Source: Vulcanimicrobiota bacterium (lineage in GTDB: Bacteria; Vulcanimicrobiota; Vulcanimicrobiia; Vulcanimicrobiales; Vulcanimicrobiaceae). From it: a stretch of DNA of 49,239 nt. The notes under the pieces were generated by a model that did no database searches, was not told the origin of the DNA, and saw nothing but the letters and a program-made list of their open reading frames with translations. The translations under genes and the position numbers were made by a program. The DNA lies in NCBI GenBank assembly GCA_003135555.1, contig PLCF01000006.1:1-49239 (forward strand). The letters run 5' to 3'. Shown piece by piece: positions 37,411-44,497 of the stretch (position 1 is its first letter; every line of letters starts with the position of its first letter).

Positions 37411-37453
37411 GGCGTAAACCGAATTCGTTAGGTGTCCCGCTCGTGGAGGTCCG

Positions 37454-37840
37454 ATGGCTCGCCGGCGTTCCGTTCCGCTCACCGAGGCAGAGCAGCGGCT
37501 CATGGAGATCGTCTGGTCGGCCGGGCCGGCGACGGTCGGGCAGATCACCGATGCCATCCCCGAGTCCGAGCGGCCCGCGTACAACACCGTGCAGACGATG
37601 ATGAAGATCCTCGAGCGCAAGGGGTACGTGCAGCATCGCTCCGAGGGCCGCGCCTTCGTGTACCGGGCGGTGGTCGACCGCGACGCGGCCGTGCGCACCG
37701 CGCTGTCGCACGTGGTGCAGCGTTTCTTCGGCGGCTCGCCGCAAACGCTGGCGCTCAATCTGGTGCAAGGCGACCATCTCAGCGAAGAGGAGCTCGACGA
37801 GCTCGAGCGGACCATCGCCCAGGCCAAGGCGGACGCGTGA
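37454..37840 (+). CDS. BlaI/MecI/CopY family transcriptional repressor
   Basis: LTEAEQRLMEIVW, AYNTVQTMMKILERKG, GRAFVY, FFGGS; GGAGG RBS. Confidence 0.95.
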   Translation: MARRRSVPLTEAEQRLMEIVWSAGPATVGQITDAIPESERPAYNTVQTMMKILERKGYVQHRSEGRAFVYRAVVDRDAAVRTALSHVVQRFFGGSPQTLALNLVQGDHLSEEELDELERTIAQAKADA

Positions 37841-39996
37841 TGGACGCCTTGCTGCTCGCGGTGCTCAACGCGCTTTGGCAAGGCGCGGCGCTGATCGGGC
37901 TGGCCGCGCTGTCCCTTCGCGCCGGGTTGCGGCGCAACGCGACGACGGCGTGCATCGTGTGGAGCGCCGCATTCGGCGTGGTCGCATTGCTGCCGGTGAT
38001 CGATCTGGCCTTGGCGCGCCCCGGGGTCTCCGCCGGGTCGAGCCCCGGCGTGTACTACCGTCAGCCGGTAACGACCCGTGTGCCTGCGGAGGCAACCGCG
38101 GCCTTCGTCGTCGTCGACGGGCCCGCCGCCGCGCCGCGCGTCCCCGAACCGCTCCTCGCCGACTTGCCCGGGCCCTCGCTCTCCGACCGCTGGCACGACA
38201 CCGCGCTGGCCATCGGCGCCGCGGCCACCGCATTCGCTCGGAGCTGGGGGATCTTCGTCCTCGGCGCGTGGGCCGTCGTCGCCGGAGCGCTCGTTCTGCG
38301 CCTGGCGCGCGGCTACGCCGCGATCGCACGCATGAAGCGCGGCGCGACGCCGCTCGCCGATCCGGCGGTCCTGGCGCGCTTGCGCGCCGCCGGACATCGC
38401 CGGCACGCGGACGTGGCCTGCTCGACCAACGTCGAGATCCCGTGCGCGGTCGGATTCCGCCGGCCGATGATCCTGCTTCCGGCGGGGCTGGCCGCCTCGC
38501 TCGACGCCGATGACTTGGCGCGCGTGATCCTGCACGAGTCCGCCCACCTCCAACGCTACGACGACTGGACCAATGCCCTTGAGCAGGTCGTCTGCGCGCT
38601 GCAGTTCTTCCAGCCCGCCCTATACGTCGCACGGCGCGGGATCGACTTCGAACGCGAAGTCGCTTGCGACGACCGCGTCGTCGAAGACGCGGGCGAGCCG
38701 CTCCGCTACGCGGAGTGCCTGGCCCGCATCGTGCAGCGCCACCTGCGCGGACGGCAAGCCGCGGTCGTGCCGGGCTTCGTCCTGCGCCGCGCGCAGGTCG
38801 TGGCTCGCGTGCGGCGCATCGTCGATCGCTCCCGCGACGCGTCGCCACAGCTGCGGGTCGCCACGTTCGCGCTGGGGGCCACGTTGTTGGCGGCTACGCT
38901 GGGGATGGCGCGGCTGCAAGTCCCCGTCGTCGCGCCGGCCGTGGCCGCGCCGATCGTCGCCGATTGCAGCTGTCCCCCGGTCGCGCACCGCACCGCGCCG
39001 CGAGCGCTGGTAATGGCGCTGGTGCCGGCGCCGCACCCGCCTGCGCACGCAGTCGCCCAAGCTGCGGCGATCGCATCGCCCTCACCCTCACCGACGCCTG
39101 CGGTGGGGCGGCGTACTGCCGCGCACCCGTCCACCCACTCACGCACCCACTCGCACAGCCACGCGCACGCAAAATTGCACGCGCACAGCGATCTGGTCCA
39201 TTCGCAGGCAGACGTCGCGACCGACGCCGCGCCCGCCGCGGAAGAGCTGGCGCGCACGGCGGCGGCCCTCGCGGACGTCGCCGCCCAGGACAGCGCCATG
39301 GCACCTGCGATGGCACCTGTTATGGCGCCGCCGACGTCGACGCTGACGGTGACGGCCAGGAGGATCTCGTTCGCTCCGCTCGTCGCCGCTCGGGTGGCGC
39401 TCGAGAACGCATCGGCGACCTCTTTCACCGCACCGCGCCGCTTCGTGATCCTCGCGTCGTCCGGCGACGGCGGTGATCTGCTCGACGCCATCGACGGCGC
39501 GAAGTATCCGCATCCCAGCGTCGACGATCTGGTGGCGCTGCGCAATGCGGGCATCAGCGCCGACTACATTCGCCGGATGGGCGCACTCGGACCGAACCGC
39601 CCGTCGCTGCACCAGCTGCTCGCCCTCGCCCTGCAGAACGTCTCCCCGGCGTACCTTGCAACGCTCGATCGGCGCCTGATCTCACCGTCACTCGACGACG
39701 CGATTTCACTGCGCGTCCAGGGCGTCAGCGCGGTTTGGCTGGACGGCCTCGCAGCCGCCGGATACCAGCGCTTGACGCCCGCCGAAGCGGCGTCGCTAAC
39801 GGTACAGGGCGTATCGGTCGTGTACGTACGCGGTCTGCTCGAAGCCGGCTTGCGAAACGTCACGCCGCAGCAGCTCGCGGCGCTGCACGTGCAGGGCATC
39901 GACGGCCCGTTCGTGCGCCGCCTGGCTCAGCACGGCTATCGCAATCTCAACCTCGAAGAGCTCGTGCGACTCAAAGTGAGCGGCTTCGAACCGTGA
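37840..39996 (+). CDS. M56 (BlaR1-type) metallopeptidase with helical-repeat C-terminal domain
   Basis: NALWQGA, PCAVGFRRPMILLP, HESAH (HExxH), EREVACDD; C-terminal L..L...G(I/V)S..Y repeats. Confidence 0.92.
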   Translation: MDALLLAVLNALWQGAALIGLAALSLRAGLRRNATTACIVWSAAFGVVALLPVIDLALARPGVSAGSSPGVYYRQPVTTRVPAEATAAFVVVDGPAAAPRVPEPLLADLPGPSLSDRWHDTALAIGAAATAFARSWGIFVLGAWAVVAGALVLRLARGYAAIARMKRGATPLADPAVLARLRAAGHRRHADVACSTNVEIPCAVGFRRPMILLPAGLAASLDADDLARVILHESAHLQRYDDWTNALEQVVCALQFFQPALYVARRGIDFEREVACDDRVVEDAGEPLRYAECLARIVQRHLRGRQAAVVPGFVLRRAQVVARVRRIVDRSRDASPQLRVATFALGATLLAATLGMARLQVPVVAPAVAAPIVADCSCPPVAHRTAPRALVMALVPAPHPPAHAVAQAAAIASPSPSPTPAVGRRTAAHPSTHSRTHSHSHAHAKLHAHSDLVHSQADVATDAAPAAEELARTAAALADVAAQDSAMAPAMAPVMAPPTSTLTVTARRISFAPLVAARVALENASATSFTAPRRFVILASSGDGGDLLDAIDGAKYPHPSVDDLVALRNAGISADYIRRMGALGPNRPSLHQLLALALQNVSPAYLATLDRRLISPSLDDAISLRVQGVSAVWLDGLAAAGYQRLTPAEAASLTVQGVSVVYVRGLLEAGLRNVTPQQLAALHVQGIDGPFVRRLAQHGYRNLNLEELVRLKVSGFEP

Positions 39997-40772
39997 GGCG
40001 AGTCTTGACCGCGGCGCTCGCCGCGTTGCTGCTGACCGCCGGCGCGCTGGCCGACGCGAGGGCGGGCACCACCACCGGCCGCTGGGCGCTTACCCTGCGC
40101 GGCGACGACGCGAACGCGGTCCAACTGCACCTGGAGTATGCGGAGCGCGTGGAGGGAGGCTGGTCGCGCTCGTCATGGTCCTCGCCCGTTCCGCTGGCCG
40201 ACGTGGGACTGGGCGCCGAGCGCCTGCGCGGTGCGGTCGCTCCGGTGACCTTTGCGCTCCGGCGCGAGGCCGGCACCTTCGCTTGCACCGGGAGCGCCGG
40301 CGACGGTTCGGGGGCCGGGCAATTCACCTACGCACCCGACGCGGCGTTCGACAACGCGCTCGCCGCGCGCGGGTTCGGCCGGCCGACCTATCCGCAGTCG
40401 CTGGAGTTGGCCGTGGCAGCGACGACCTTGGCCTTCGTCGACCAGATCCGCGGTTCGGCCCCGCACGCAACGGTCGCCGACCTGGTCGGCGCCGTGGAGC
40501 GCGGCGTCAACGCGCGCTACGTCGCGGAGCTCGCGGCGCTCGGCTACCGCGTCGGCTCGCTCGACGCGCTGGCGCGGCTGCGCGACCACGGCATCAGCGC
40601 AAATTACATCCGCGCGATCCAAGCCGACGGCTATCGCAACCTCTCGCCCGAGGATCTGATCGCGCTCGCCGACCACGGCGTGAGCGTCGCGTTCGTCGAC
40701 CGTCTCAAGGCCCACGGCTACACCAACCTCTCGGTCCGCGACCTGATCCGCCTGCGCGACGCCGGCATCTGA
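39993..40772 (+). CDS. Secreted protein with LxxLRDHGxSxxY/F repeats
   Basis: Signal peptide; FALRREAGTF; repeats LARLRDHGISANYI, LIALADHGVSVAFV; GTGA overlap with M56 gene. Confidence 0.85.
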   Translation: MRRVLTAALAALLLTAGALADARAGTTTGRWALTLRGDDANAVQLHLEYAERVEGGWSRSSWSSPVPLADVGLGAERLRGAVAPVTFALRREAGTFACTGSAGDGSGAGQFTYAPDAAFDNALAARGFGRPTYPQSLELAVAATTLAFVDQIRGSAPHATVADLVGAVERGVNARYVAELAALGYRVGSLDALARLRDHGISANYIRAIQADGYRNLSPEDLIALADHGVSVAFVDRLKAHGYTNLSVRDLIRLRDAGI

Positions 40773-40786
40773 TCCGCGATCGCCGG

Positions 40787-40819
40787 AAAAAAGAGACCGC
40801 CTCGTGCTGAGGCGGTCTC
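40787..40819 (-). terminator. Rho-independent terminator of the phasin-like gene (may also act on the + strand)
   Basis: 11-bp perfect stem GAGACCGCCTC/GAGGCGGTCTC, 5-nt loop, A6 tract on + strand (U6 on - strand). Confidence 0.9.
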
Positions 40820-40845
40820 GTGACGCGGAACGGACGGGTTCGGCG

Positions 40846-41169
40846 TTACTTGGTGCTGGGCGCGGCGGTCGCGACGACGCGCTCGGCGACCTTCGCGACA
40901 TTCTGCTGGGTCGCGGTGAAGATCCCCGCGAGCTGCGAGGCGTAGGCACTCTGCTGCTCGAGGAAGCTGCGCGCGAACGCGGCGTTGAGCTCGGCGAGCT
41001 CGGCGAAGGTGGGGAGGTTCGCGAACGCCGCCTCGGGCCGCAACGCCGGGACGTCGGTGACGATCTGGCCGATCGTGCTCAGCGCGGCAAGCTGGGTCGC
41101 TTGGACCTGCTTGAGGGCGTCGAGGCTTTGCGATTGGAGGTTGCTCAGGGATTCGATGTAGGTCGACAT
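40846..41169 (-). CDS. Phasin-like granule-associated protein (putative)
   Basis: 107-aa Ala/Gln-rich amphipathic helical protein in a phaB/phaZ locus, with strong promoter and terminator. Confidence 0.65.
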   Translation of the reverse strand: MSTYIESLSNLQSQSLDALKQVQATQLAALSTIGQIVTDVPALRPEAAFANLPTFAELAELNAAFARSFLEQQSAYASQLAGIFTATQQNVAKVAERVVATAAPSTK

Positions 41170-41175
41170 GTGCTA

Positions 41176-41205
41176 ACTATATCAAGCAGCTGCTAGATTT
41201 GTCAA
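41176..41205 (-). promoter_or_regulatory. Near-consensus sigma70 promoter giving a leaderless mRNA, with palindromic operator candidate
   Basis: TTGACA-N18-TATAGT (TG extended), 6 nt before ATG, no RBS; AGCAGCTGCT palindrome at 41185-41194 in the spacer. Confidence 0.8.
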
Positions 41206-41216
41206 ATGCTTTGGCG

Positions 41217-41594
41217 TCAGCCCGAATGCTCCACGAAGCCCCGGTAGATGCGAGCGAGCGTCTCCTTCTGGTCGGCCGTGAGGCGGGCGTCGCGGCGGAT
41301 CGCGTCCTCGACGCCGTCGAGGCTGCGCCCCCCAGCCTTCCCCGCCCCGGCGTCGTCGAGCAGGCCGGCTTGGGCGTACATCGTCTCGGCCGAGATCCGC
41401 AGCGCCGATGCGATGTTCTTGAGGACGTCCGCCGAGGGCTTGTGCAGTCCGCGCTCGATCTGGCTGAGGTAGGGGTTGGAGACTTTCGCGATATCGGCGA
41501 GCTGGCGCAACGACAAGTTGGCGAGCTCCCGTTGGGTGCGGATGAACTCGCCGACGCCCCCCAGGAGTCCGTCGCTGTCGGAGGTTTTCGACAC
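41217..41594 (-). CDS. XRE-family transcriptional regulator (Rv0474-like)
   Basis: GEFIRTQRELANLSLRQLADIAKVSNPYLSQIERGLHKPSADVL...VEDAIRRDARLTADQK. Confidence 0.9.
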   Translation of the reverse strand: MSKTSDSDGLLGGVGEFIRTQRELANLSLRQLADIAKVSNPYLSQIERGLHKPSADVLKNIASALRISAETMYAQAGLLDDAGAGKAGGRSLDGVEDAIRRDARLTADQKETLARIYRGFVEHSG

Positions 41595-41596
41595 GG

Positions 41597-42337
41597 CTAC
41601 ATGTCCAGGCCGCCGTTGATCGTATAAACGGCGCCGGTGATGTAGCTGGACTCGTCTTCGAGGAGAAACTGCACGACGCGCGCGACCTCGTCGGGGCGCC
41701 CCAAGCGGCGCTGCGGAATCTTCTCCACCACCGCGTCGAGCACGTTCTGCGGCATCTTCGCGACCATCTCGGTTCCGATGAAGCCCGGCGCGACGACGTT
41801 CACGGTAATCCCGCGGCGCGCCATCTCGAGCGCCAAGCTCTTGGTGAGGCCGAACAGCCCCGCTTTCGAAGCGGCGTAGTTCGCTTGCCCGACGTTGCCG
41901 GTCTCGCCGATCACCGAACTGATGTTGACGATCCGGCCCGAACCGCGCTCGATCATGTGCTCGAGCACCGCTTTGGTCATGCAGAATGCGCCGAACAGGT
42001 TGACGTCGAGCACGTTGCGCCAATCGTCGACGGTCATCTTGCGCACCGTCTTGTCGACGGTGATGCCGGCGTTGTTTACCAGGAAGTCGATGCGGCCGAA
42101 ACGGGCCAGCACTTCGGCGACGACGCGCTGGCAATCCTCAGGCTTATCGACGCGCCCTTGGTGCACCGACACCTGACCGCCATCGGCCGCGAGGGTGCGC
42201 ACGAGGTCGTCGGCTGCTTCCTTGCCTTTGCTGTAACCGGCGGCGACGCGCGCGCCGTTCTTGGCGAGCATCGTCGTGATCGCCGCACCGATTCCGCGGG
42301 TCCCACCGGTGATCAATCCCACGTGACCGTCGAACAC
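41597..42337 (-). CDS. phaB: Acetoacetyl-CoA reductase (SDR; PhaB/FabG-like)
   Basis: TGGTRGIG, NNAGITVDKTVRKM, GQANYAASK; AGGAGG RBS; adjacent to phaZ. Confidence 0.8.
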   Translation of the reverse strand: MFDGHVGLITGGTRGIGAAITTMLAKNGARVAAGYSKGKEAADDLVRTLAADGGQVSVHQGRVDKPEDCQRVVAEVLARFGRIDFLVNNAGITVDKTVRKMTVDDWRNVLDVNLFGAFCMTKAVLEHMIERGSGRIVNISSVIGETGNVGQANYAASKAGLFGLTKSLALEMARRGITVNVVAPGFIGTEMVAKMPQNVLDAVVEKIPQRRLGRPDEVARVVQFLLEDESSYITGAVYTINGGLDM

Positions 42338-42480
42338 TCGTCAACCTCCTCGCTAGAGGCCGATATGCCGGGGACGGCGGCGTTCCCCTTCCAACCGATA
42401 CCATGACCGAGGGCTTTTCCCGTAGCCGGCGGAACCTCGCACGCAATGGGCGGGTACAACCCCCGCCGGAGGCCTCAACA

Positions 42481-43668
42481 ATCTACTACGAACAGTACGA
42501 CGCGGCGTATCTCGCGATGACCCCCGCGCGCTGGTCCGCTGCGGCCACACGAGCGCTTTTCGGCAACCCGTTCAATCCTTTTTCCTACACGGTCGGCGGC
42601 CGCATCGCGAACGCCTCGGCCGACCTCTTCACCGGGGCCGCGCAACGCCGCGGCAAACCGGCGTGGAATCTGCCGGCGACGATCCGGAGCGTCGACCTGC
42701 GGCCCTTCGGGCAACTGATCCGTTTCGACACGGGCACCGCGCGCGAACGCGCACGCGTGCTGCTGGTCGCACCGATGTCCGGACACTACGCGACGCTGCT
42801 GCGCGGTACGGTCGAAGCCCTCATCGCCGACCACGACGTGTACGTCACCGATTGGGCGGACGCCCGTGACGTGCCGGCCGGCGCGGGCCGCTTCGACCTG
42901 CACGACTACATCGCGTACGTCAAGGACTACATCGCCCTGCTCGGACCCGACGTGCACGTCATCGCCGTGTGTCAGCCGGCGCCCGCGGTCCTCGCCGCGG
43001 TGGCCCTGTTGGCCGCCGGCGGCGCTGCCGCGCAGCCGCGTTCGATGACGCTCATGGGCGGGCCGGTCGACGTTCGCGTCGCACCGACCGCACCGACCGC
43101 GCTGGCCGCGGAGCACACCTTGGAGTGGTTCGAGCGCGAGCTGACGATGCGCGTCCCGCAGTGGTATCGCGGCGCAGGCCGCCTCGTCTACCCGGGCTTT
43201 TTGCAGATCGGCGCGTTCATGTCGATGAACCCGCAGCGTCACGTCGAGGCGCACTGGAAGATCTTCGAAGACCTGGTGCGCGGCGACGAGGAGTCGGCGC
43301 AGCAGCGGCGCGCATTCTACGACGAGTACCTCAGCGTCATGGACATCACCGCCGAGTTCTACTTGCAGACGGTGGACGAAGTGTTCCAGCGGGCCACTTT
43401 GGCCGCCGGTACGATGACGTGGCGCGGGCAGCGCGTCGATCCGGGCGCGATCCGCACGACCGCGCTGCTGACCGTCGAAGGCGAGCTCGACGACATCTCG
43501 GCCCCGGGCCAGACCCTCGCCGCTCACGCGCTCTGCACCGGGATCCCCGCGGCGCGGCGCGAGAACTTCCTGCAGCGCGGCGTGGGGCACTACGGGATCT
43601 TCAGCGGGCGCACGTGGCGCGAAACGATCGCGCCGCGGATCGCCGCGTTCATCGCCGCTCACGCCTGA
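42481..43668 (+). CDS. phaZ: Intracellular polyhydroxyalkanoate depolymerase
   Basis: VAPMSGHYATLLRGTV, DVYVTDW, AVCQP, YPGFLQ, FYDEY, EGELDDIS, GVGHYGIF; likely start is ATC 42481 after GGAGG (ATG 42403 is the alternative). Confidence 0.92.
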   Translation: MYYEQYDAAYLAMTPARWSAAATRALFGNPFNPFSYTVGGRIANASADLFTGAAQRRGKPAWNLPATIRSVDLRPFGQLIRFDTGTARERARVLLVAPMSGHYATLLRGTVEALIADHDVYVTDWADARDVPAGAGRFDLHDYIAYVKDYIALLGPDVHVIAVCQPAPAVLAAVALLAAGGAAAQPRSMTLMGGPVDVRVAPTAPTALAAEHTLEWFERELTMRVPQWYRGAGRLVYPGFLQIGAFMSMNPQRHVEAHWKIFEDLVRGDEESAQQRRAFYDEYLSVMDITAEFYLQTVDEVFQRATLAAGTMTWRGQRVDPGAIRTTALLTVEGELDDISAPGQTLAAHALCTGIPAARRENFLQRGVGHYGIFSGRTWRETIAPRIAAFIAAHA

Positions 43669-43682
43669 CGGGCGGCGCCGCG

Positions 43683-44444
43683 TCAGCCGCGCTGCGCGAC
43701 CTTACGCCAATACACGGCGGTCCAGTCGACCGGCTGCAAGATCTCGTCGAGTCGATGGCGCGCGCGATAGTCGTCGACCGCCCGTGCGCAGCCGGGTACG
43801 GCGCCGTAGTCGTCGACGATGCAATAGCCGCCCGGGCTCAGCTTGGGATAGAGCGACTCGAGCGCGACCATCGTCGACTCGTACATGTCGCCGTCCAAGC
43901 GTAAGACGGCGATCTGCGCGACCGGCAGCTCGGGCAACGTATCCCGGAACCAACCTTTGACGAAACGCACTTGCTCATCGAGCAGGTCGTATCGTCCGAA
44001 GTTTCGCCGTACTTCTTCAAGCGAGACCGCGAGGTCGGAGAACGTGTGATGCGTGTCGCCGGCATCGAGCGGATAGCGGTCGGGGTCGGGGGGCGGCAAG
44101 CCCTCGAACGAGTCGGCCACCCAAACGCTGCGGTCGCGAACGCCATAGGCGCGCAACACGGCCCGCATCACAATCGTGGCTCCGCCGCGCCACACGCCGG
44201 TCTCCACGAGGTCGCCCGGAACGCCGCGCTCGAGCACCGACCGCACGCAGGCAGCGACGTTGGCCAAGCGTTGCGGACCGATCATGCTGTGCGCGCGAAC
44301 CGGCCAATTGCCGCCTCGCCGCGTTCCGGATAGCTGGTTCTCGCGATCGTCGTAGACGACGTCGAGCACCGAGCGCATGACCAGGTCGATGTACAACTCG
44401 GCGGCGGTCCGCGGCGCCGGCGCGGCTCCTTCTGAAGCTTTCAT
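43683..44444 (-). CDS. Second TylF/MycF/NovP-family O-methyltransferase
   Basis: GDLVETGVWRGG, DSFEGLP, KGWFRDTLP, LRLDGDMYEST. Confidence 0.93.
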   Translation of the reverse strand: MKASEGAAPAPRTAAELYIDLVMRSVLDVVYDDRENQLSGTRRGGNWPVRAHSMIGPQRLANVAACVRSVLERGVPGDLVETGVWRGGATIVMRAVLRAYGVRDRSVWVADSFEGLPPPDPDRYPLDAGDTHHTFSDLAVSLEEVRRNFGRYDLLDEQVRFVKGWFRDTLPELPVAQIAVLRLDGDMYESTMVALESLYPKLSPGGYCIVDDYGAVPGCARAVDDYRARHRLDEILQPVDWTAVYWRKVAQRG

Positions 44445-44497
44445 GAGAAAGCGCGCTCTCGACAAGGGCGGCGCCGGCGTCTTCGGAAGGCGCAGCG

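Follow-up and report, generated by a model that had tools for sequence, protein, structure and literature searches.

Phasin control is understood chiefly through PhaR in Proteobacteria. In Ralstonia and Paracoccus, PhaR is a repressor that sits on the phasin (PhaP) promoter and is titrated by the nascent granule surface, so that the phasin supply matches the granule. A different type of storage-body regulator, MLDSR, is known from Rhodococcus jostii RHA1, in which MLDSR and the droplet protein MLDS are encoded by RHA1_ro02105 and RHA1_ro02104; in the portion of that report available to us, its operator motif 1 is given as GTGCTTGCAATTGCTAGCAC, and both positive and negative action is ascribed to the regulator (Zhang et al. 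2017, PMC5504291). The supplementary trees of the same paper list M. tuberculosis NP_214988.1 and NP_214989.1 (PMC5504291), which, from their numbering, we infer to be Rv0474 and Rv0475. Rv0474 is described, in the accessible part of its report, as an autorepressor that responds to copper and has an RNA polymerase promoter as a further target (PMC10884836). Furthermore, an XRE-family protein of Ralstonia eutropha, H16_B1672, was found by DNA pull-down to bind PphaP1, where it acts alongside PhaR, according to the excerpts consulted (PMC11332829). In the literature that we searched, with most subscription journals outside its scope, no MLDSR-type regulator is described for polyhydroxyalkanoate (PHA) loci, and phasin control is covered neither for Eremiobacterota nor for the actinobacterial PHA clusters considered below.

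The window (the whole stretch of 49,239 nucleotides analyzed here) derives from a member of the little-known phylum Eremiobacterota, a soil bacterium whose nearest named relatives are “Candidatus Elarobacter.” In it, phaZ on the plus strand is divergent from phaB, an XRE gene, and a gene for a 107-aa protein, all on the minus strand, and the four genes lie where a previous sequence-only reading of this DNA had placed them. The phaZ product (42403..43668, plus strand; 421 aa) is an intracellular PHA depolymerase that scores 532.9 bits with TIGR01849, well above the curated cut-off of 300.75, and 295 bits with PF06850. The phaB-type gene (41597..42337, minus strand) encodes a 246-aa acetoacetyl-CoA reductase or FabG-like SDR (NF009464, 286.4 bits; cut-off, 269). 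This protein falls narrowly below the TIGR01829 cut-off (299.7 versus 302.1 bits), with FabG models scoring nearly equally, and its PhaB role is assigned from gene context; orthologues that are 82 to 87% identical keep the same position in four loci of the same genus. The 65-bp region between phaZ and phaB (42338..42402) contains a Shine-Dalgarno sequence, GAGGAGG, ahead of phaB; arm-motif scans and reading of the sequence revealed no operator-like motif there. The XRE gene (41217..41594, minus strand; 125 aa) starts with GTG 2 nt past the phaB stop codon. As the sequence-only reading had remarked, no phaC lies within the window; a genome search located a class I phaC on another contig of the same genome.

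On profile evidence, the 107-aa protein (40846..41169, minus strand) is a Phasin_2-family phasin, and its context with phaC, phaB, and phaZ predicts that it coats PHA granules. Its match to Pfam PF09361 (Phasin_2) reaches 28.4 bits against a gathering cut-off of 24.9 and covers profile positions 3 to 98 of 100 (25.6 bits in a six-frame genome search). The same profile recognizes 16 of 26 aligned family members at an E value of ≤0.01, most of them under the Pfam cut-off, and the curated NCBIfam phasin model TIGR01841 gives 21.6 bits, below its cut-off of 30.2. Thus, the “novel,” non-orthologous phasin that had been proposed for this locus turns out to belong to a known family, although all 55 homologues are unnamed or annotated as “hypothetical.” Sequence identity among relatives drops to about 30%. 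The structure model is a two-helix hairpin of two long helices (pLDDT, 70), in agreement with the earlier description of the protein as amphipathic, but the maximal helical hydrophobic moment (0.47) was equalled in 69 of 500 shuffles, so that this property is weakly borne out. A search of solved structures with the phasin profile gave no match (best E value, 3.5, to a designed protein). Kinship of this family with HbhA/MLDS-like proteins was rejected, at an hhalign probability of 0.5%. A second phasin paralogue exists elsewhere in the genome, in a phasin-DUF445 operon, and a WS/DGAT gene is found about 4 kb from it.

Sequence comparison gives good support for assigning the window XRE to the MLDSR family known from Rhodococcus, the M. 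tuberculosis member of which is presumably Rv0474. The protein has an N-terminal XRE helix-turn-helix (HTH_3, 51.5 bits) and is modeled with seven helices (pLDDT, 87), comprising the HTH and two C-terminal helices. Fold matches include ClgR, DdrO, SinR, and C-proteins, with solved structures matching at the HTH level only, and NCBIfam has no specific model for it (the best, SlrR and ClgR, remain far under cut-off) or for HbhA/MLDS-like proteins. Over residues from about 11 to 122, the C-terminal helices included, it is 50 to 60% identical to actinobacterial members. Kinship with MLDSR/Rv0474 was judged through these named relatives (from Streptomyces, Amycolatopsis, Kribbella, and a Mycobacterium metagenome-assembled genome [MAG]). 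Actinobacterial members adjoin HbhA/MLDS-like genes, which lie downstream and encode proteins with AKK-rich tails, and the “Rv0474-like” label of the sequence-only reading is upheld to this extent. The DNA-reading stretch SNPYLSQIERG is almost invariant among 60 family members. In full-length form, the family is widespread in Actinomycetota, where homologous phasin-XRE-phaC clusters were found as well. In Acidimicrobiia and Bifidobacterium, its members are often paired with a GT4 glycosyltransferase.

Our survey of 151 sampled Eremiobacterota genomes shows that the regulator and the phasin are consistently linked. The phasin is present in 55 genomes and XRE in 58, at one copy per genome, and every phasin genome (55/55) carries XRE. 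Both genes were found on one contig in 52 cases, always co-oriented and with XRE as the upstream gene; 41 of these have a gap of at most 350 bp, 10 have one of 351 to 3,669 bp, and in the remaining case it is 20 kb. Of the 58 XRE genomes, 50 have a class I phaC immediately 5′ of XRE, and the usual order is phaC-XRE-phasin. Ten genomes of the same family have class I phaC yet neither XRE nor phasin, with the queries used. In one genome of the same genus (G121), an amidase-like frame, read by eye, follows XRE. The sequence-only reading had assumed control without PhaR, and searches with TIGR01848 bear this out: no match was obtained in this genome (84% complete) or in the 80 genomes (71 and 9) of the two families with the module. 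Six genomes of the same genus that are 94 to 99% complete likewise gave none. Within the phylum, near-cut-off PhaR matches are confined to six genomes, none of which belongs to these two families; in G009 and G035, they are situated 3 to 7 kb from short PhaC_N-bearing frames on the same contig.

The phasin gene is predicted to be a transcription unit of its own, as had been noted. Its promoter consists of a −35 hexamer, TTGACA (41200..41205, minus strand; at least 90% conserved among 40 distinct related promoters), and a −10 hexamer, TATAGT (41181-41176, minus strand), separated by an 18-nt spacer with TG. Eleven of the 12 hexamer positions match the consensus, and a promoter scan found one such site in the region compared with a mean of 0.1 over 50 shuffles. 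The start codon (ATG at 41169) is situated 7 nt beyond the −10 hexamer and has no Shine-Dalgarno sequence, which predicts a leaderless start. Downstream, an intrinsic terminator (40787..40819, minus strand; hairpin at 40819-40793) with an 11-bp stem, a 5-nt loop, and T6 folds at −23.2 kcal/mol (z = −6.6), a stability reached by none of 200 shuffles.

Within this promoter, a 20-bp palindrome of the GTGCT-N10-AGCAC type, CTGCTTGATATAGTTAGCAC (41170..41189, minus strand), encloses the −10 hexamer. By eye, it is identical at 15 of 20 positions, with equal arm spacing, to MLDSR motif 1 as given in the supplement of PMC5504291. The block TTGACA-N10-GTGCTTGGTATACTTAGCAC, with zero to four mismatches, stands immediately 5′ of the phasin gene and overlaps the −10 in 44/44 loci examined, and positions 2 to 18 of the 20-mer are at least 90% conserved (40 distinct sequences). 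This genome has 124 arm matches, only 2 of which have an A/T-rich center, one before each phasin paralogue. Among five near-complete relatives, the 20-mer is single and located at the phasin promoter in four (a reversed-pattern control yielded one match). One of these four is genome G097, in which XRE is 20 kb distant. Outside Eremiobacterota, 22 of 71 loci carry a site of the MLDSR motif 1 type within the 140 bp 5′ of XRE. The arm pattern alone is not significant in the window (2 matches versus 1.29 expected); the case for an operator is built on the complete 20-mer together with its position and conservation. TTGACA and TGnTATACT within the conserved block are requirements of RNA polymerase itself, and what speaks for a regulator is limited to GTGCT and TTAGCAC at the flanks. 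The spacer also contains a perfect 10-bp palindrome, AGCAGCTGCT (41185..41194, minus strand), a possible extra half-site pair whose AGC is 70 to 90% conserved. Upstream of phaB-XRE, an arm-motif scan and reading of the sequence found no operator-like site; thus, autoregulation as in Rhodococcus is not evident here. Taken as a whole, the pattern suggests that the 20-bp palindrome is a putative XRE operator whose AT-centered form is restricted in this genome to phasin promoters, and the view that the XRE protein regulates the small gene gains a candidate binding site.

We consider it likely that an MLDSR-type XRE regulator represses the phasin gene from this palindrome and that granule formation relieves the repression. 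A dimer of XRE would bind the 20-bp site (consensus, GTGCTTGGTATACTTAGCAC), which covers the phasin promoter's extended −10, and block RNA polymerase; the second phasin-DUF445 operon, which has the same site, would be repressed likewise. Overlap of a binding site with the −10 is the arrangement usually seen in repression. As with MLDSR and PhaR, a newly formed hydrophobic granule surface may draw the repressor away from the DNA, and phasin output would thereby become proportional to the granule. The granule-coat genes that adjoin XRE are thus probably under its control.

Other explanations differ in the sign of the regulation, in the signal, or in the object that is coated. Because MLDSR is reported to have positive and negative actions, either sign is possible for XRE at the phasin promoter, and XRE might be an activator or a dual activator/repressor that senses something soluble (a metal or a metabolite, for example) instead of being titrated by granules. 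Within the consulted parts of the two reports, both knockout and overexpression of MLDSR lowered MLDS, low protein-to-DNA ratios stimulated in vitro transcription (PMC5504291), and Rv0474 responds to copper (PMC10884836); in addition, further conserved AGC half-sites are present upstream in the spacer. However, the main palindrome spans the −10 hexamer, as is typical of repression, and the promoter is already near consensus, so that activation should not be needed. With no cysteine and only two histidines in the window XRE, a thiol-type metal site is improbable. We therefore regard activation or soluble-signal sensing as unlikely. It is also conceivable, with rather low probability, that the conserved sequence is merely a strong constitutive promoter and that XRE is a neighbor with another regulon (e.g., stress or its own operon). 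Phasins rank among the most abundant proteins in PHA-forming cells, and TTGACA and TGGTATACT are RNA polymerase elements. Against this, GTGCT and TTAGCAC, which lie outside the hexamers, are at least 90% conserved while the phasin itself is not, the palindrome is of the mapped MLDSR type and recurs before actinobacterial XRE genes, and no phasin genome lacks XRE.

The regulator family was described in connection with lipid droplets (PMC5504291, in the part available), which, along with the WS/DGAT gene near the second paralogue, raises the question of whether the small proteins coat neutral-lipid (wax ester/triacylglycerol) droplets, like Rhodococcus MLDS/TadA, and not PHA granules. The grouping of the window copy with phaB and phaZ, the position of the module after phaC in 50/58 genomes, the membership of the protein in Phasin_2, and the lack of detected homology to HbhA/MLDS-like proteins make this very unlikely. 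XRE HTH proteins are also common antitoxins and phage repressors, and weak NCBIfam matches to such families exist, all far under their cut-offs. Nevertheless, a toxin-antitoxin or prophage-type pair unconnected with storage granules, which was already disfavored, deserves hardly any credence, given the phasin family membership, the linkage to phaC, phaB, and phaZ in genomes of two families, the single copy per genome, and the immediate flanks of the locus, in which no mobile-element genes were seen.

Repression by XRE and its relief by granules, as favored here, lead to a concrete regulator, a candidate operator, and a predicted two-gene regulon, and link the PHA and bacterial lipid-droplet fields through one regulator family and one DNA site that appear with two chemically different storage bodies with unrelated coats. 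If granule titration is true, the matching of coat supply to surface has been achieved a second time, by an independent protein family. The promoter-operator-XRE set could become a compact PHB-responsive switch, and the “hypothetical” 107-aa family could be renamed phasins in databases. The proposal that actinobacterial logic was applied to PHA granules stands as far as the shared regulator family and operator type are concerned; however, the PHA version is no invention of Eremiobacterota, since phasin-XRE-phaC clusters exist in Actinomycetota. Tentatively, and with more doubt than confidence, one regulator family and one operator type may constitute a general sensor of storage-body surfaces across phyla. 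It would control HbhA/MLDS-type lipid-droplet coats in Actinomycetota and Phasin_2-type PHA coats in Eremiobacterota and some Actinomycetota. XRE itself would then recognize a hydrophobic polymer or lipid surface rather than a particular coat protein, coat genes would have been exchanged beneath a fixed regulator and operator, and the frequent GT4 pairing would hint at more targets.

Compared with known systems, the window XRE shares with MLDSR an XRE-HTH architecture of about seven helices, a gene next to the one for a storage body's major coat protein, and a palindromic GTGCT-N10-AGCAC candidate operator at the promoter (PMC5504291, as far as available); the actinobacterial members with MLDSR-type operators are 50 to 60% identical to it over the full length. 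Unlike MLDS, the coat protein is a Phasin_2 phasin that has no Lys/Ala-rich DNA-binding tail and no detectable HbhA/MLDS homology. Whereas the storage bodies of Rhodococcus are lipid droplets, the one here is PHA, judging from gene context, and the candidate operator is found ahead of the coat gene and not ahead of the regulator gene, which is predicted to be cotranscribed with phaB (or phaC in relatives) and not with the coat gene. H16_B1672 is, by its description, also an XRE-family protein that binds and represses a phasin promoter, as proposed for the window XRE; it was identified by DNA pull-down and works beside PhaR (PMC11332829). As for Rv0474 beside hbhA, a paralogue from the Mycobacterium sp. 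MAG, in the order DUF445, XRE, HbhA-like, and small membrane protein, is 57% identical to the window XRE; in contrast to Rv0474, described as copper-responsive (PMC10884836), the window XRE has no cysteine. The logic proposed for XRE and the phasin is identical to that of PhaR/PhaP, whereas XRE is unrelated to PhaR (TIGR01848) in fold and family. The better-studied reference for the window XRE is Rhodococcus MLDSR/MLDS rather than Rv0474.

Contig C81 of a 3.57-Mb bin (G000; 98 contigs, 84% complete) makes up the window, whose proteins have named relatives in "Candidatus Elarobacter" and Eremiobacterota. Genes called from the ORF list, Pfam and NCBIfam, together with promoter and terminator scans, bear out the layout seen in the sequence-only reading. 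phaZ (42403-43668, plus strand; TIGR01849, 532.9 bits) diverges from three minus-strand genes: a phaB/FabG-type reductase gene (41597-42337; TIGR01829, 299.7 bits, just below the 302.1 cut-off), the gene of a 125-aa XRE helix-turn-helix protein (GTG at 41594 to 41217), which starts 2 nt past the phaB stop, and a 107-aa gene (40846-41169). For the last of these, the promoter is TTGACA-18-TATAGT plus an upstream TG (one such site found, 0.1 expected), the ATG stands 7 nt past the -10 without a Shine-Dalgarno sequence, and a terminator follows (11-bp stem, -23.2 kcal/mol, z = -6.6). Adjoining phaZ on the opposite strand is a TylF-type macrocin O-methyltransferase homologue (43683-44465, minus strand; 333 bits) with no obvious PHA connection. 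A BlaR1-type M56 peptidase (Peptidase_M56, 97 bits) and then a 345-aa protein without a Pfam family are encoded at 37432-40772; they share C-terminal repeats of an approximately 35-aa unit (…GY.NL….L..L...G…), an unnamed domain.

The 107-aa protein passes the Pfam Phasin_2 cut-off (28.4 versus 24.9 bits), and 16 of its 26 aligned relatives match the same family; the TIGR01841 phasin cut-off is not reached. Its AlphaFold model is a two-helix hairpin (pLDDT 70), and the 55 homologues detected are labeled "hypothetical" in databases. Judged by family matches, it is an ordinary though divergent phasin, and its earlier description as novel and non-orthologous was wrong.

Among 151 Eremiobacterota genomes sampled, the phasin was found in 55 (49/71 of family f1, 5/9 of family f3, and 0/70 of the remaining families) and the XRE gene, counted at E <= 1e-20, in 58 (51/71, 6/9, and 0/70, respectively). 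Conservation of the neighborhood is strong: all 55 phasin genomes have a single XRE copy, and wherever both genes share a contig they lie on the same strand with XRE upstream (52/52), at a distance of <= 350 bp in 41 cases, 351 to 3669 bp in 10, and 20 kb in one; in three genomes they are on separate contigs. XRE keeps 63 to 78% identity, as against a drop to about 30% for the phasin. In 50 of the 58 XRE genomes, the gene immediately 5' of XRE is a class I phaC; the other eight are G138 and the seven that belong to the genus of the window, in which phaB replaces phaC and phaZ is divergent. One genome flagged as unpublished (G128) is counted among the 58, the 50, and the three XRE-only genomes. 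In G121, the frame after XRE looks amidase-like (read by eye).

The PHA synthase sought in G000 is present as a class I phaC on contig C96, about 5 kb from a thiolase, and a short PhaC_N-bearing hydrolase is encoded on contig C97. PhaR (TIGR01848), whose replacement had been proposed, was found neither in G000 (84% complete) nor in any of the 71 f1 and nine f3 genomes; near-cut-off matches occur in six genomes only, all of other Eremiobacterota families. However, in 10 f1 genomes that carry a class I phaC, these queries detected neither XRE nor the phasin, which counts against a simple replacement story.

Directly 5' of the phasin, TTGACA-N10-GTGCTTGGTATACTTAGCAC was found with zero to four mismatches in 44/44 loci examined, which include loci with non-adjacent XRE and four refetches of earlier loci. 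Positions 2 to 18 of this candidate operator are at least 90% conserved in 40 distinct sequences. In 9 of 41 scored phasin loci the gene is leaderless, its ATG directly following the operator; the others have leaders of 20 to 50 nt, most with a GGAG Shine-Dalgarno sequence. The 20-mer is single copy and located at the phasin promoter in four of five near-complete relatives, and the fifth (G136) has a four-mismatch variant there. A variant of one lineage, TCGCTTGGTATACTAAGCGC (L037 and L125, the latter from G136), is off consensus at both its second and nineteenth bases, which are mirror positions of the palindrome, and looks like a symmetric half-site change. Of 124 arm matches in G000, only two have an A/T-rich center: the window site CTGCTTGATATAGTTAGCAC (41189-41170, minus strand) and, ahead of a second phasin-DUF445 operon, a site with perfect arms at C97:92370.

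This second phasin (C97:92005-92325; 41% identity to the window phasin) has 106 aa, a GTG start and an approximately 45-nt leader, and is preceded by TTGACA and the perfect-arm operator GTGCTTGATATACTTAGCAC (C97:90753-92410, L114:2754-4411, outside the window). The DUF445 membrane-protein gene begins 4 nt downstream; L124 (a Mycobacterium bin) and L098 likewise have a DUF445 gene, directly 5' of the XRE-HbhA-like pair. On the same strand, 1 to 4 kb upstream of the second phasin, are genes for a CYP102-like P450-reductase fusion (1082 aa) and a WS/DGAT wax-ester/triacylglycerol synthase (512 aa) (C97:93256-98056, L114:5257-10057), and the organism may thus also make neutral-lipid bodies. Some 4 kb from the short PhaC_N-bearing hydrolase is a 58-aa fragment with 96.5% identity to the C terminus of the DUF445 protein (C97 ~64250-64423, L115:8250-8423), and in same-genus genomes the second phasin is 4 to 8 kb from that hydrolase; C97 may therefore have been rearranged, or joined in assembly.

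Scanning the full set of 1.84 billion representatives gave 1210 proteins matching XRE at E <= 1e-10, the best 150 with 47 to 82% identity, most over nearly the full query length; across 60 aligned members, both SNPYLSQIERG and a pair of C-terminal helices are conserved. Among named loci, the best 80 comprise nine of Eremiobacterota type and 71 further ones, chiefly Actinomycetota (Streptomyces, Kribbella, Amycolatopsis, Mycobacterium, Acidimicrobiia, and Bifidobacterium) but also Dormibacterota and Binataceae. The gene directly downstream was identified in 79. About two dozen encode 160- to 230-aa proteins with a PLYAxAGAxDLA start and an Ala/Lys-rich tail, which by these features are of the HbhA/MLDS type. 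A GT4 glycosyltransferase gene (about 403 aa), rather than a coat protein gene or phaC, is directly 3' of XRE in 12 of the 79 (12/71 non-Eremiobacterota loci: L046, L052, L061, L063, L065, L075, L079, L090, L091, L092, L099, and L102, from Acidimicrobiia/Ilumatobacteraceae and Bifidobacterium). phaC follows XRE in five, all actinobacterial, with small genes just upstream of XRE in L070, L086, L103, and L111 and a divergent one in L074. The products of these small genes share homology with the window phasin family (hhalign 98.1%, E = 1e-13, 104 columns), and operator-like sites precede the small genes in L086, L103, and L074. On sequence grounds, the PHA version of the module extends beyond Eremiobacterota. 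A Mycobacterium sp. bin has two XRE paralogues, one before phaC and the other in the order DUF445, XRE, HbhA-like, small membrane protein, an arrangement shared with Rv0473 to Rv0476.

The overall finding is real; XRE binding, regulatory sign, and granule titration are inferences. XRE, proposed to be cotranscribed with phaB (with phaC elsewhere), would repress phasin promoters by sitting on the palindrome that covers the -10, and the granule surface would then pull it off the DNA, by analogy with MLDSR and PhaR. We also considered XRE as an activator or as responding to a soluble signal; copper is reported as the Rv0474 signal (PMC10884836), and the window XRE has no cysteine. Another reading considered was that the conserved sequence is merely a strong promoter. 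A lipid-droplet role for the small protein was weighed too, and the proposed HbhA-type comparison showed no homology between the window phasin family and the HbhA/MLDS-like family (hhalign probability 0.5%). The repressor reading is the one we prefer.

Literature searches gave no description of this XRE-phasin module. The only cultured member of the Eremiobacterota is reported to have Nile-red-staining inclusions, which the authors took as PHA. An XRE protein of R. eutropha that binds PphaP1 has been published (PMC11332829) but looks unrelated to ours. What the first reading said of the regulator is well supported and can be stated more precisely, as the MLDSR family with its operator. According to Zhang et al. 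(PMC5504291), MLDSR, reported to have seven helices like the XRE model (pLDDT 87), binds two palindromic motifs before mldsr-mlds, its operator being motif 1, GTGCTTGCAATTGCTAGCAC, and is sequestered by lipid droplets. The window site equals motif 1 at 15 of 20 positions (counted by eye). In 22/71 non-Eremiobacterota loci, GTGCT-N10-AGCAC with at most one arm mismatch occurs no more than 140 bp ahead of the XRE match, whereas in Eremiobacterota the element lies after XRE, on the phasin promoter.
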